A DNA stretch of 64,000 nt from an uncultured Desulfobacter sp. (lineage in GTDB: Bacteria > Desulfobacterota > Desulfobacteria > Desulfobacterales > Desulfobacteraceae). The first letter of the stretch is position 1; every line of letters starts with the position of its first letter. Under the pieces are notes generated by a model. It was not told where the DNA came from, did not search any database, and worked only from the letters and a program-made list of their open reading frames with translations. The stretch covers positions 96,001 to 160,000 of the forward strand of contig OY762069.1 of assembly GCA_963665095.1 (NCBI GenBank), in the 5' to 3' direction. Shown here in pieces: positions 17,842 to 39,420 of the stretch. Made by a program: the position numbers and the translations under genes.

Positions 17842-17930
17842 AAAAAACGTTGAGTTAAGCGGAAAAATTATAACCCAAAAACAACGTAAAACCCGGCGGG
17901 TACTTTTCCGTCTTCAACTCTTTGTTACAT
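17842..17930 (-). other. attC site (89 bp) of IS91-transposase cassette copy 1
   Basis: ATGTAAC-AAAGA-GTTGAAGA...GCTTAAC-TCAAC-GTTTTTT. Confidence 0.8.
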
Positions 17931-19654
17931 TAACCGGGTCGAAGCCTCGCAGTTGATTTCTTGGGTAAAAGCAGGGGAATCCTTATTTTCAAACTTAGAT
18001 TTAACAGCACAGATTCTAAAATTTGCCTGGTAAAATTGAGTGAGCATTAAGATTCTTCCTTCTACTTAATCCGGTCAGGCTTGAAAAAGAGCCGAAAAAC
18101 CTGGTACCGGAGCGGATTGCCGATACGAGTCCCTGACAGGGAACTGCCTATTTTGATATCGGTAATTGTTTCCAAAGTAAAGCTTTTTATAGTTCCCCTG
18201 ATTTAGCCGGAATTTGCTTGGCCTTGGTTTTTGGTAAGTCGTCTTTCACCACGTTGCCATGACCGTCCAGCACCAGGATCGTTATCATGTTCCCTTTGCC
18301 GCAGGCCGGGCATTGAGGCGTCTGTTCTTTCAGGGGTTCAGGATCAGGGGTATCCCGGTCATTCAATGCCTGGCGTATTTCCGATATATTTCGTCCTGCC
18401 TGCCCGTTGGCCAGAAACCCATAATATCTGATCCGATGAAAGTGTTTTGGAAGAACATGCAAAAGGAAACGATCAATGAAGCTCATTACCGGTAAAGAAG
18501 TTGTTTCCCACTTGGATTTATTCCGGGTGTTTTTAAACCAGAACTCCACAGTCTCGTTGTTAACGGATATAATCCTGTTGTTGCTGATGGCTGTTGAATG
18601 GGTGTATCTACCGATATATTTAACGACTTCGGCTGGACCTGAGAATGGTGGTTTGGAATATACCACCCAGTCTTTTGGAGCGGTATGGTACAGCCATTGC
18701 CTGAATGCGCAGGGTTTTGAAAGATGAGCCAGTTCATCCGGGATGTTTAATCGTCCTCGACCGTGGGCTGCAATAAGGCCGCTAAGGAACTTTGCCCTGA
18801 ATACATTTGAAAGCGCTTTGACCGGAAACAGGAATGTTGAGCTGTACTTGGGCTCCACCCATTCCCCATAAGTGTTTATTCCGCCTGCAGTGACAATGAA
18901 ATGGATGTGGGGATGCAGCCAGAGTTTGCCGCCCCAGGTGTGGAGGATACCGTAGAACCCGATCTTGGCTCCAAGACGCTTTGGATTCTCCCCGAATTCC
19001 AGCAGGGTCTGGGAGGCGCTTTCAAACAACAGGTCATACATTACCCGCCGGTTGAACCGGCACAAAGGGTTGAAGATATCCGGCAATGTGAAAACGCAGT
19101 GGTGATAGGACACCGGAAGCAGATCGTTGATCCTGGCCGTCACCCATCTGTGACGGGCGATATTGTTTCAACCCGGACAATGGCGGTTCCGGCAGGAGTT
19201 GTATCCTTTTTCAAGGTGGCCGCATGTGTCGCATAGCTCCCAGTGGGTGCCAAATTCTCCGCGTCGACAATGCTCGATATCGTACATAACCTTGTGTTGC
19301 CTGGGGTGCAGGCGGTGTGCTGATCTGAAGGGAGGACCGTATTTTCTAAATATATCTCCGACGCTTGGACCGGTTTCGGGTTTTTCAGGGAGCTTGGTAT
19401 GGCTGCAAAGTGTTTTCATCGGTTATCGAAGCCCGCAGCGTAGGAGAACGGGAGGCGCAGGCTGCAATGATTTATGACAGGCGTGGCATTTGCGCAGTTT
19501 GCAAATGACATGACTGGCAGAAATCTTGCGTCTGGGCGTCCCCCCGTTCTCCGGAAAAGTTTGCACCATAGATTATGAAGTCCTTATTTTATAGGCGTTT
19601 CGAGCTCTGCAGTTGGCTTCAAGATGTTGCATTCACCGTCCAGGTTTAATGTAA
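17848..19654 (-). mobile_element. Gene cassette carrying an IS91-family transposase, copy 1 (1807 bp)
   Basis: Near-identical to 37795..39420; identity ends at the GTT cores on both sides. Confidence 0.8.
18187..19419 (-). CDS. IS91-family (Y2 HUH) transposase, 410 aa if the in-frame TGA at 19168-19170 is read through; otherwise a pseudogene
   Basis: CDTC...NSCRNRHCPG*, HHCVFTLP, LHTWG, HPHIH, YIGRY, HRIRYYGFL. The two listed ORFs are in the same frame. Confidence 0.85.
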
Positions 19655-19674: not shown

Positions 19675-21803
19675 GCCAGGTAGCCGGGGACCGTTACCGG
19701 TCCCAAGCCCCTTAAGAACCGGACGTGAGACTTTCACCTCATCCGGCTCAAGCATTGATAAGGCGTGTTGCCACACCCAACAGTTGTCTTCGTTTCCAAC
19801 GAGCTTTGAGATAGTCGGCCCATGCAGGATCGTACGGGTTAACATTCGCTCTAATCTTGATATGTCTGGTAAGCCGGGTCGCGCCTAGTAAAATCAGGGG
19901 TTCGGGATTACCTTTTTCCATGAATCGCCAGTCTCGACCTTTGATTCTCCGGTAATACTTGTTTTTAACCCATCCTTTAGATTTCTTTGGATGCCTTCGC
20001 CTGGCCCATTGCCATGTCATTTGCCAAAATGCATGGTCCAAATCCCCAAACACCTTCCGGCTTACGACGTGTTTGTAATAATTTGCCCAACCGCGTATGA
20101 TACTATTCAGTTTGGCAATAACAACATCGGTTCGCAGGGTTTTATTGGCATGCAGATAGTCTCTGACTTTCGCTTTTATGCGTTTAATGCTGGATTTTGA
20201 AGGTTTTATCAGAAGTTTGCCTTTGTATTTTCTGACATTGAAGCCAAGGAAATCAAAGCCATCATCAATATGTGTGATAATGGTTTTCTCTTTTGATAGT
20301 TCAAGTCCCCTTATTTTAAGGAACTCTTCGATCAAAGGCTTGACTTTATGTTTGAGCATTTCCGGAGAACGGCCCGTTACAATGAAATCATCAGCACACC
20401 TGACAAAATGAATTTTGTCAGGCTTCTTGAAGTTATCATCAAGGAGGGGCTGGATACCGTCAAGAGCCATATTGGCAAGCGTCGGTGAAATTATTCCACC
20501 CTGTGGAGTCCCTTCATTTGTCGAATTAAATATATGTTTCTCAAGATAACCGCACTTGAGCCATTGTTTTAATTTCTTCTTGTTCATGGGAATGTTTTCA
20601 TCCAACCATTTATGATCGATAAAATCAAAACAGCCTTTGATATCTGCCTCTAAAATCCAGTCAGCACTACCTTTCCGTCTTAACGCATTGTAAATCGCTC
20701 CTATGGCATCCTGGGCCGAGCGGACTTTCCTGAATCCATAGGAATGATGATCCGCTGTGGATTCAGATACCGGATCAAGCCCTAATAAATCAAGGGCCTG
20801 TTCCACCCGGTCATGCATGGCCGGTATGCCTAATGGTCGTTTCTTACCATTTTTCTTTGGGATATAAATACGTTTCAGCGGCTTAGCCTTATATTCGGGA
20901 AGATTAAGATTCTTGAGCGTTTCCCATCGCTTCCGAGGTGTATCAATTAACATATTGTCAACACCTGGGGTTCGTTTTCCACTATTGGATATTACCCGTT
21001 TGATAGCAATAAGTTTTGCCGCAAGCGAGTTGGACAGCAGCCTTTGAAGGCCGCGTACCTTTTGTTTTAATCCTTGCTTAACTGCCTTCACGATACGCGC
21101 TTGTATACGGAATACTGTCTGTCTGTGCTTATCCCAGTCAATGAGATCCCACACATTCTTCAAGCCCATACGGCCGTCAACATCATGTAATGATATCATC
21201 CATCCACACCAGTATAGTTATTCCGTTCAAATCATTTCCCGTGATTCAACACCGTGCCGGAAGTCTGCACACTTTCGTGTCCGGGCAAATTTTGAACCCG
21301 TATCTGATCCATTACAGAACAGCATTCGCTTTCTCCAGCGTTCCTCTACCCGCATCCCCATAGGCCACCCTTGCGGCTGGCTGTCCTTACGGGGAAGGAG
21401 AGATACGGGCTTACCAAGTTCCACTTTCAACACACAATGGGTTAGCGTCTGTCTATCCGCCGGAGGGATCATTGATTACGTGAAGCAACTACGGAATACT
21501 CCAACCATACCTCTTGCCTTTTGGCCCAGGCCTGTCAGCATCTTTGGCCTGTCAAACATAACGACGTTTATTAACAGTTCACATATGTTACGCATACCAT
21601 CGTTCCTAGCTCCCATCCGGGTTGATGCTCCCAGAGTTGAGGTCCTCTTACGATTATCTCTTCCGGCCATAGGCCAAGGGCTTCATTGTCATCCGGGCTT
21701 CACACAAAAACATTACTGCTAGTGCATGCCGGAGTAGAAAACTGCCGGTAATACGGCAGGTTGGGGCGAGCCCAACATTATTAAAAGCGACTTCTTGTCG
21801 CAA
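19675..21803 (-). mobile_element. Group II intron (chloroplast-like/IIB-type features)
   Basis: 5' end TTGCGACAAGAAGTCGC; domain V GAGCCGGATGAGGTGAAAGTCTCACGTCCGGTTC; domain VI ends CTACCTGGC; internal RT ORF. Confidence 0.9.
19748..21199 (-). CDS. ltrA: Group II intron reverse transcriptase/maturase without an endonuclease domain
   Basis: TPGVD, RPLGIP, YGFR, DIKGCFD, GTPQGGIISP, RCADDF, IRGWANYY, NPYDP. Confidence 0.93.
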   Translation of the reverse strand: MISLHDVDGRMGLKNVWDLIDWDKHRQTVFRIQARIVKAVKQGLKQKVRGLQRLLSNSLAAKLIAIKRVISNSGKRTPGVDNMLIDTPRKRWETLKNLNLPEYKAKPLKRIYIPKKNGKKRPLGIPAMHDRVEQALDLLGLDPVSESTADHHSYGFRKVRSAQDAIGAIYNALRRKGSADWILEADIKGCFDFIDHKWLDENIPMNKKKLKQWLKCGYLEKHIFNSTNEGTPQGGIISPTLANMALDGIQPLLDDNFKKPDKIHFVRCADDFIVTGRSPEMLKHKVKPLIEEFLKIRGLELSKEKTIITHIDDGFDFLGFNVRKYKGKLLIKPSKSSIKRIKAKVRDYLHANKTLRTDVVIAKLNSIIRGWANYYKHVVSRKVFGDLDHAFWQMTWQWARRRHPKKSKGWVKNKYYRRIKGRDWRFMEKGNPEPLILLGATRLTRHIKIRANVNPYDPAWADYLKARWKRRQLLGVATRLINA

Positions 21804-37788: not shown

Positions 37789-37877
37789 GCTAAACGTTGA
37801 GTTAAGCGGAAAAATTATAACCCAAAAACAACGTAAAACCCGGCGGGTACTTTTCCGTCTTCAACTCTTTGTTACAT
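37789..37877 (-). other. attC site (89 bp) of IS91-transposase cassette copy 2
   Basis: Same as 17842..17930 except that R' reads GTTTAGC. Confidence 0.8.
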
Positions 37878-39420
37878 TAACCGGGTCGAAGCCTCGCAGT
37901 TGATTTCTTGGGTAAAAGCAGGGGAATCCTTATTTTCAAACTTAGATTTAACAGCACAGATTCTAAAATTTGCCTGGTAAAATTGAGTGAGCATTAAGAT
38001 TCTTCCTTCTACTTTATCCGGTCAGGCTTGAAAAAGAGCCGAAAAACCTGGTACCGGAGCGGATTGCCGATACGAGTCCCTGACAGGGAACTGCCTATTT
38101 TGATATCGGTAATTGTTTCCAAAGTAAAGCTTTTTATGGTTCCCCTGATTTAGCCGGAATTTGCTTGGCCTTGGTTTTTGGTAAGTCGTCTTTCACCACG
38201 TTGCCATGACCGTCCAGCACCAGGATCGTTATCATGTTCCCTTTGCCGCAGGCCGGGCATTGAGGCGTCTGTTCTTTCAGGGGTTCAGGATCAGGGGTAT
38301 CCCGGTCATTCAATGCCTGGCGTATTTCCGATATATTTCGTCCTGCCTGCCCGTTGGCCAGAAACCCATAATATCTGATCCGATGAAAGTGTTTTGGAAG
38401 AACATGCAAAAGGAAACGATCAATGAAGCTCATTACCGGTAAAGAAGTTGTTTCCCACTTGGATTTATTCCGGGTGTTTTTAAACCAGAACTCCACAGTC
38501 TCGTTGTTAACGGATATAATCCTGTTGTTGCTGATGGCTGTTGAATGGGTGTATCTACCGATATATTTAACGACTTCGGCTGGACCTGAGAATGGTGGTT
38601 TGGAATATACCACCCAGTCTTTTGGAGCGGTATGGTACAGCCATTGCCTGAATGCGCAGGGTTTTGAAAGATGAGCCAGTTCATCCGGGATGTTTAATCG
38701 TCCTCGACCGTGGGCTGCAATAAGGCCGCTAAGGAACTTTGCCCTGAATACATTTGAAAGCGCTTTGACCGGAAACAGGAATGTTGAGCTGTACTTGGGC
38801 TCCACCCATTCCCCATAAGTGTTTATTCCGCCTGCAGTGACAATGAAATGGATGTGGGGATGCAGCCAGAGTTTGCCGCCCCAGGTGTGGAGGATACCGT
38901 AGAACCCGATCTTGGCTCCAAGACGCTTTGGATTCTCCCCGAATTCCAGCAGGGTCTGGGAGGCGCTTTCAAACAACAGGTCATACATTACCCGCCGGTT
39001 GAACCGGCACAAAGGGTTGAAGATATCCGGCAATGTGAAAACGCAGTGGTGATAGGACACCGGAAGCAGATCGTTGATCCTGGCCGTCACCCATCTGTGA
39101 CGGGCGATATTGTTTCAACCCGGACAATGGCGGTTCCGGCAGGAGTTGTATCCTTTTTCAAGGTGGCCGCATGTGTCGCATAGCTCCCAGTGGGTGCCAA
39201 ATTCTCCGCGTCGGCAGTGCTCGATATCGTACATAACCTTGTGTTGTCTGGGGTGCAGGCGGTGTGCTGATCTGAAGGGAGGACCGTATTTTCTAAATAT
39301 ATCTCCGACGCTTGGACCGGAAAAGTTTGCACCATAGATTATGAAGTCCTTATTTTATAGGCGTTTCGAGCTCTGTAGTTGGCTTCAAGATGTTGCATTC
39401 ACCGTCCAGGTTTAATGTAA
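37795..39420 (-). mobile_element. IS91-transposase cassette, copy 2 (1626 bp; 181-bp deletion)
   Basis: Aligns to copy 1; the deletion lies between CCGG repeats and removes the start codon. Confidence 0.8.
38134..39320 (-). pseudogene. IS91-family transposase, 5'-truncated, with the same in-frame TGA (39115-39117)
   Basis: Protein identical to copy 1 except for the last residue and the missing N-terminus. Confidence 0.8.

Follow-up and report, generated by a model that had tools for sequence, protein, structure and literature searches.

An in-frame TGA at a zinc-ligand cysteine codon of an IS91-family transposase gene in a Desulfobacter: nonsense hot spot or selenocysteine codon?

The 64,000-nucleotide (nt) stretch of DNA analysed in this study, hereafter the window, comprises positions 96,001 to 160,000 of contig OY762069.1 (assembly GCA_963665095.1) from an uncultured Desulfobacter sp., whose genome (G000) consists of one 6.9-Mb contig. 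The window carries two copies of an IS91-family insertion sequence (IS) whose transposase gene is interrupted in frame by a TGA at codon 84 (Table 1). In copy 1 the frame begins with ATG, runs for 83 codons ending in ...YNSCRNRHCPG, meets the TGA and then remains open for a further 326 codons to a TAA; the readthrough product is 410 amino acids (aa) long. Beyond an 11-nt spacer the TGA is followed by a hairpin of seven Watson-Crick pairs whose loop has G in second position. The initial annotation had described a TGA in place of the last Cys of the zinc motif, a frame open for more than 320 codons thereafter and a perfect 7-bp hairpin at this spacing, and each of these particulars was confirmed.

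Table 1. Features of the IS91-family element and its surroundings in the window
Feature	Window position	Strand	Basis or remark
IS91-family element, copy 1	17846..19654	minus	~1809 bp; four-copy alignment and left end common to relatives
Left end of copy 1, TTACATTAAACC	19654-19643	minus	same end in relatives despite unrelated flanks
Right end of copy 1, ...CTCAACGTT	17854-17846	minus	read from sequence
Transposase codons 1-83, N-terminal part of Zn-binding domain, last residues CRNRHCPG	19171..19419	minus	ATG at 19419
In-frame TGA, codon 84	19168..19170	minus	TGT/TGC in homologues; alignments
11-nt spacer AACAATATCGC, TGA to hairpin	19157..19167	minus	
Hairpin CCGTCAC-AGATGG-GTGACGG (sense), 7 bp	19137..19156		arms 19156-19150 and 19143-19137; candidate selenocysteine insertion sequence on RNA; target-hairpin mimic on antisense DNA
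Pseudo-junction, GCGATATTG (9 nt, last base G) then TTTCA	19157..19170	plus (antisense)	
Transposase codons 85-410 and TAA, with HUH-Y2 catalytic domain	18187..19167	minus	TAA at 18189-18187
IS copy 2	37793..39420	minus	TGA 39115-39117, hairpin 39084-39103; defective
Long stem-loop in 5' leader of copy 1	19442..19552	minus	predicted fold
Group II intron adjoining left end of copy 1	19675-21760	minus	Rfam RF00029 at 19675-19751 and RF02012 at 21609-21760; frame for 483-aa reverse transcriptase/maturase at 19748-21199

With Cys assumed at codon 84, where the gene has TGA, the predicted protein matches the PF14319 zinc-binding domain over residues 23-112 (95.8 bits), and the PF04986 Y2 transposase domain is matched over residues 154-338 (194.2 bits). 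The HUH and Y2 residues H169, H171, H173, Y268 and Y272 show no variation across 13 aligned sequences, while C84 is invariant in 13/13 aligned homologues with identities down to 48%, as are C51, C63, C66, C76, C81, H59 and H80. Judged on sequence, the HUH/Y2 catalytic domain, the zinc-binding domain and the end structure place the transposase in the IS91 family.

The initial annotation had noted a second copy, which was confirmed, although the actual total in G000 is four, at four sites, and the TGA and an identical hairpin are present in all of them. Copies 1 and 3 are intact apart from the TGA; copy 2 suffered a 178-nt deletion that took the start codon and ~15 codons, and copy 4 is without the first ~39 codons. 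The right end is common to all four copies, while the left parts are full, deleted or truncated. Alignment also upheld the earlier observation that copies 1 and 2 differ upstream of the TGA at three synonymous codons (AGG/AGA at codon 40, CAT/CAC at codon 50 and TGT/TGC at codon 51); these three sites lie within 33 nt in copy 1 and may represent one conversion tract. In the regions C1:921116-927325 and C1:3316294-3327614, which hold copies 4 and 3, respectively, each copy has two further IS91-like genes of ~34% identity within a few kb.

Near-identical DNA was found in sequencing runs under six organism labels and in some marine metagenomes, from nine studies, and no RNA data are listed among the 22 runs concerned. 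The near-identical copies in other assemblies carry additional substitutions, frameshifts and truncations, and the 99% protein cluster is made up of 13 C-terminal fragments of 99-318 aa, some of them from these other assemblies. Contigs of four runs contain variants that are 2-7% diverged from the G000 element, with 27 of the 36 displayed coding differences synonymous and codon 84 not readable, and one metagenome contig is clipped at exactly the three letters of codon 84.

Outside G000 the codon is almost always TGT or TGC (TGY). Among 401 genomes of the class, 130 of which have a homologue, TGT or TGC was found in 28/28 non-G000 loci having the motif, one locus (L035) being without it; in 25 genomes of the genus TGY was found in 14/14 non-G000 sequences; and in the JGI metagenomes 40 of 41 motif instances are TGY, the single TGA being that of locus L224. 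An exact-pattern search covering every one of the family's 161 species genomes returned TGY in 22 copies from 16 genomes, with at most two per genome, and TGA in five copies from two genomes (four in G000 and one in G451). The tally of TGA versus TGY proposed in the initial annotation thus goes against recoding, as besides G000 only one independent, decayed case was found among these 161 genomes. The closest relatives of the G000 element code for Cys at this position and share 84-87% identity with it, and no full-length protein of more than 81% identity was found among 5.8 billion clusters. A scan of viral contigs gave 0 matches and a plasmid BLAST search gave none. A search for N-terminal fragments ending ...HCPG gave three protein matches, none ending there, but was insensitive because G000's own 83-aa piece is absent from the protein collection. 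The genome-wide scan for C-R-N/D-R-H-C-P-x-TGA returned at least 119 stretches, 118 of those listed being out-of-frame noise from GC-rich genomes. The one real case among them is L165:1303-2445, from a metagenome-assembled genome of the Desulfobacteraceae, where a distant IS91 transposase (~41% identical, CPKC type) has TGA at the same Cys in a frame otherwise open from start to stop, with a weak hairpin, AAGCC-AGGU-GGCUU, 13 nt past the TGA whose loop resembles the GG loops of the G000 host; as it stems from a targeted pattern scan, it is an anecdote that is not usable for statistics.

Rare as it is, TGA has arisen at this codon more than once. The three TGA lineages (G000, G451/L268 and L224) are separate in a 20-sequence tree, each with Cys sisters. 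L224 differs from its Cys-coding sibling L214 at 3 of 1236 nt, two of which lie only 6 nt apart (CCC GGC TGA versus CCT GGC TGT), a clustering consistent with local conversion or patch repair, and the G451 copy is further disrupted by a frameshift and by a TAG at Y192. Among ten independent nonsense events in sequences at least 60% identical, three fall at codon 84 and the others at codons 60, 91, 192, 193, 232, 241 and 369; none falls at any of the 12 other Cys codons. Based on the 145 single-base routes to a stop in the gene, the probability that at least two of the other nine events would fall at codon 84 under uniform mutation is 0.0005-0.0017. TGA is, furthermore, linked to the hairpin. 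All seven pairs are present in all three TGA lineages (copy 4 being merged into G000), whereas among 47 TGY lineages seven pairs are found in three and six or fewer in 44, such that no TGA occurs outside the seven-pair lineages (Fisher test ~0.001, by hand).

The ends of the element offer an explanation for this linkage. The left end TTACATTAAAC is present in all relatives and is preceded by G in 29/32 distinct flanks, and in 9/32 flanks it lies 8-11 nt beyond the end of a hairpin with 5 bp or more, as compared to a mean of 2.1 and a maximum of 7 in 500 shuffles. The left junction of the element reads as a target hairpin, 8-11 nt, G and then the IS end TTACATTAAACC. The antisense strand of the transposase gene at codon 84 presents the same arrangement: the 7-bp hairpin is followed by the 9 nt GCGATATTG, of which the last is G, and these in Cys-coding relatives by TTACA (TTGCA in TGC forms), the pentamer with which the IS left end also begins. 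The change from TGY to TGA corresponds to TT(A/G)CA to TTTCA, that is, to the middle base of the pentamer. Truncated copies in L072 (G402) and in L255/L258 (metagenome) have different genes on their flanks, which shows them to be independent, and in both the sequence stops at GGCTGYAA|, no more than 2 nt from the mutated base (in L255/L258 the BLAST segment extends to nt 244, and homology was extended to nt 254 by reading the sequence). The stretch from nt 233 to 288 accounts for four of the eight independent 3' breakpoints.

HUH enzymes are known for hairpin-guided nicking, and mutagenesis of the dislocation type is likewise known; the slippage step suggested here draws on both, slippage of a primer on the TT/AA run beside a nick being expected to produce just this base change. 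We infer that the HUH-Y2 transposase may nick the antisense pseudo-junction, that repair or priming from the nick could slip on the TT/AA run and convert TT(A/G)CA to TTTCA, which is TGY to TGA in the sense strand, and that breaks at the same pseudo-junction would yield the truncated copies. One TGA copy would then be ancestral to all four in G000, with no translation past the TGA: under the standard code the four copies would make an 83-aa fragment and be non-autonomous or dead, two of them being further damaged. Without any recoding, such a DNA pseudo-junction would explain why the TGA recurs, why it does so only beside a complete hairpin, which base is changed and where the breaks fall, as well as why Cys forms have the hairpin. 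Based on these findings, we consider that the TGA has about an even chance of being a nonsense substitution produced at a self-made DNA hot spot and inherited by all copies, and not a conserved recoding signal. The inherited TGY-to-TGA nonsense mutation that the initial annotation had named as the simple alternative is accordingly favoured as to the allele, although a plain one-off origin is not, given the three independent occurrences.

Several observations weigh against this hot-spot explanation. The four TGA copies at four sites of G000 are the top count in the family, Cys relatives reaching at most two per genome; and as the remaining IS91 genes of G000 are only ~34% identical and no close Cys version is at hand (none of at least 88% identity among 5.8 billion proteins), a helper for dead copies is not in sight. 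The differences among the four copies are six synonymous versus three non-synonymous (binomial P ~0.02 against neutrality, by hand), and the G000 branch shows no relaxation, with 25 non-synonymous to 60 synonymous changes versus 28:48 on the Cys sister branch; the ratio of non-synonymous to synonymous change on the G000 branch cannot date the TGA, however, and is therefore weak evidence. On that branch three substitutions (CGG to CGT, R89H and A93T), two of them amino acid-changing, turned a six-pair stem into seven Watson-Crick pairs, for which the chance is ~4% for seven pairs and ~0.1% for seven Watson-Crick pairs. Nicking of the internal site and slippage, finally, are candidate steps.

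The initial annotation had itself proposed a CxxU transposase whose synthesis would depend on selenium, pointing to the use of selenocysteine (Sec) by many sulfate reducers. The gene content of the host agrees with this. G000 encodes a tRNA-Sec, selA (598.1 bits), selB (347.8 bits) and selD (366.8 bits), the latter with its own TGA, and ten genuine Sec genes (selD x1, fdhA x5, mvhD x2 and hdrA x2) each have one in-frame TGA at a known Sec position; searches with PF00578 and PF10262 found no further Sec genes. To judge from this gene content, the host is able to decode UGA as Sec. As selB is also found in four of five tested genomes hosting Cys forms, however, the host machinery does not discriminate between the two. 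A tRNA-Pyl gene (anticodon CTA) lies at genome C1:900717-900790, beside the Sec machinery, and the 22nd amino acid may be in use in this organism in addition to the 21st. Two close relatives of the element have a TAG stop, L011 (G123) opposite H232 and L014 (G267) at W60; since the genus may use pyrrolysine (Pyl), these could deserve scrutiny similar to that given to the TGA.

Under the Sec explanation, SelB and Sec-tRNA would decode the UGA via the hairpin 11 nt downstream, producing a CPGU zinc site and low amounts of a selenium-dependent functional transposase; insertion of Cys via the Sec pathway would also be possible. We regard this as unlikely, though several observations favour it: (i) the TGA occupies an invariant metal-ligand Cys codon in a host equipped with tRNA-Sec, selA, selB, selD and ten Sec genes; (ii) the stem-loops of those ten genes begin 11-19 nt past the UGA, and in fdhA2 and fdhA3 the UGA is followed by 11 nt and a 7-bp stem, a geometry identical to that of the transposase candidate; (iii) the UGA is followed by A in both hdrA genes, and the UGA-A context is therefore no objection to Sec; (iv) the G at the second loop position agrees with the bSECISearch consensus; and (v) TGA is restricted to lineages with a complete hairpin, as would be expected if it were tolerated only where such a hairpin lets it be translated as Sec. 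A comparable hairpin follows only 38 of 13525 Cys codons (0.28%) in long frames of G000, and the hairpin after codon 84 is thus more than chance genome-wide, yet is largely inherited in the IS lineage. The copy number, the lack of a helper, the 6:3 ratio, the mostly synonymous differences to variants in other runs (27 of 36 displayed), the unrelaxed branch and the stem perfected in G000 likewise count towards Sec decoding.

Other features of the hairpin count against it as a selenocysteine insertion sequence (SECIS). In all ten genuine SECIS elements a GG lies within the first three loop positions (GGUCU, GGC, GGA/UGGAA, UGGAU, GGUCG, AGGU), whereas the candidate loop AGAUGG has none there, and the synonymous change of AGA to AGG that would provide it has not happened. 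The minimum-energy fold is in another register, UCGCCCGUC-ACA-GAUGGGUGA, at -12.8 kcal/mol versus -11.3 for the hairpin originally noted; the z-score of the 45-nt stretch with the hairpin is -1.88, and the hairpin has no Rfam match. Nor is the hairpin confined to TGA forms: it is older than the TGA and is equal or stronger in the Cys-coding homologues L013, L214 and L215, at -13.0 kcal/mol, which the initial annotation had listed among the grounds for refutation. No TGA lineage is of demonstrable age, as L224 is separated from its Cys sibling by 3 nt and G451 has decayed; with TGA in 2/161 family genomes, no UGA form kept across species under purifying selection was found, and additional damage is seen in half of the G000 copies and in several from sibling assemblies. 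The main text of the BSepDB paper and one supplement (4 million characters) do not contain 'transposase' or 'IS91', and the parts of other papers covered list no Sec-containing transposase either. Since the DNA pseudo-junction accounts for both the recurrence and the hairpin link, the hot-spot explanation is better supported than Sec decoding. The selenium-dependent CxxU transposase retains its invariant Cys, Sec-proficient host and fdhA-like spacing, and is weakened by the loop, the distribution and the hairpin of the Cys forms.

The two explanations may also be combined, in that the hairpin, existing because it mimics the junction, doubles as a proto-SECIS on the mRNA: transposase nicking would keep making TGA, which Sec-proficient Desulfobacteraceae would decode as Sec (or as Cys via the Sec pathway), after which the stem would have been perfected and the element multiplied in the G000 lineage. 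We entertain this tentatively, with no more confidence than we have in Sec decoding as such.

It is improbable that the element functions without Sec, either through low-level near-cognate readthrough of the UGA or through termination followed by re-initiation at the GTG at 19143, 24 nt downstream. The latter route would yield a zinc-finger peptide and a separate 318-aa catalytic protein which, together or the catalytic protein alone, would still move the element. A GTG-started frame of 318 aa does follow directly and was annotated by gene callers in other assemblies (P0136), and the arguments from copy number and constraint apply here as they do to Sec. However, an enzyme with Trp at a zinc ligand, or one deprived of PF14319 with the invariant C51, C63, C66, C76, C81 and C84, would be expected to be severely impaired, inspection by eye shows nothing like a Shine-Dalgarno sequence before the GTG, and leakier readthrough contexts exist than a UGA with A after it. 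Least probable of all is an ordinary one-off nonsense mutation beside a chance hairpin, the other TGA cases being coincidental: frameshifts and nonsense changes are frequent in the family, with internal stops in 10 of ~150 listed non-G000 matches, and stops are spread over residues 8-369, but three independent events at one codon (P ~0.001), all in hairpin-complete lineages and at a site with which truncation breakpoints coincide, leave it little room.

Two further features of copy 1 were noted. Its 5' leader is predicted to form a stem-loop of ~110 nt that looks perfect (-55.9 kcal/mol, z = -3.98, with 0/200 shuffles as good), which is also found in the G451 relative and is cleanly deleted in copy 3; it may control translation or act as a DNA structure. 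The group II intron that adjoins the left end of copy 1 occupies the flank where other copies carry the target hairpin.

Members of the IS91 family (IS91, IS801 and IS1294; HUH-Y2) move by rolling-circle transposition. The G000 element resembles them in its PF14319 and PF04986 domains, its HUH/Y2 residues, its one constant end as opposed to a variable or truncated other (5') end, and the G or CTTG-like base(s) at the junction. It differs in that its subclade inserts 8-11 nt beyond hairpins in 9/32 flanks, in that an inverted junction mimic lies inside its own gene, and in that the G000 copies have TGA at the last zinc Cys. Compared with the host selenoprotein genes (FdhA, HdrA, MvhD and SelD), the candidate likewise has a UGA aligned to Cys, between conserved flanks, and a stem-loop at the same distance, and shares with HdrA (CAMU) a CxxU-type context; it departs from them in its loop sequence, in a UGA that is not conserved across species and in the occurrence of the hairpin in Cys forms.

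Programmed frameshifting throttles transposase output in the IS1 and IS3 families. IS911 is covered in passages of PMC5009743. If the UGA were decoded, recoding by a 3' stem-loop would by analogy throttle the transposase in a similar manner, although through redefinition of a stop codon instead of frameshifting. A Pyl (UAG) transposase family of methanogens, in which an in-frame stop is reported to be a family trait, is mentioned in PMC1976440, which cites its reference 32 for it, and is akin to the Sec explanation in being a mobile-element enzyme whose in-frame stop is read as a rare amino acid; the codon, amino acid, machinery and transposase family are different, however, and TGA is sporadic in the G000 element. 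A Sec-containing transposase is not mentioned in the covered portions of the literature on selenocysteine together with transposase, IS91 or bSECISearch, which do not include the deep-Sep and bioRxiv supplements.

Should the hot-spot explanation be true, an IS91-type transposase gene would contain its own junction in inverted form and would time and again inactivate itself at a single base. This would amount to a built-in form of self-limitation, or to the Achilles heel, of a rolling-circle element, and would serve as a warning to selenoprotein hunters that a TGA at a Cys codon followed by a hairpin can arise from DNA causes. If instead the UGA is decoded as Sec, the transposase would constitute a new selenoprotein family linking mobile-element activity to a trace element, and would illustrate the exaptation of a coding-region hairpin as a SECIS. 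If the junction mimic doubles as a proto-SECIS, no selenoprotein transposase would have preceded this one, the supply of selenium would gate its transposition, and the birth of a new Sec codon would have been caught in the act.

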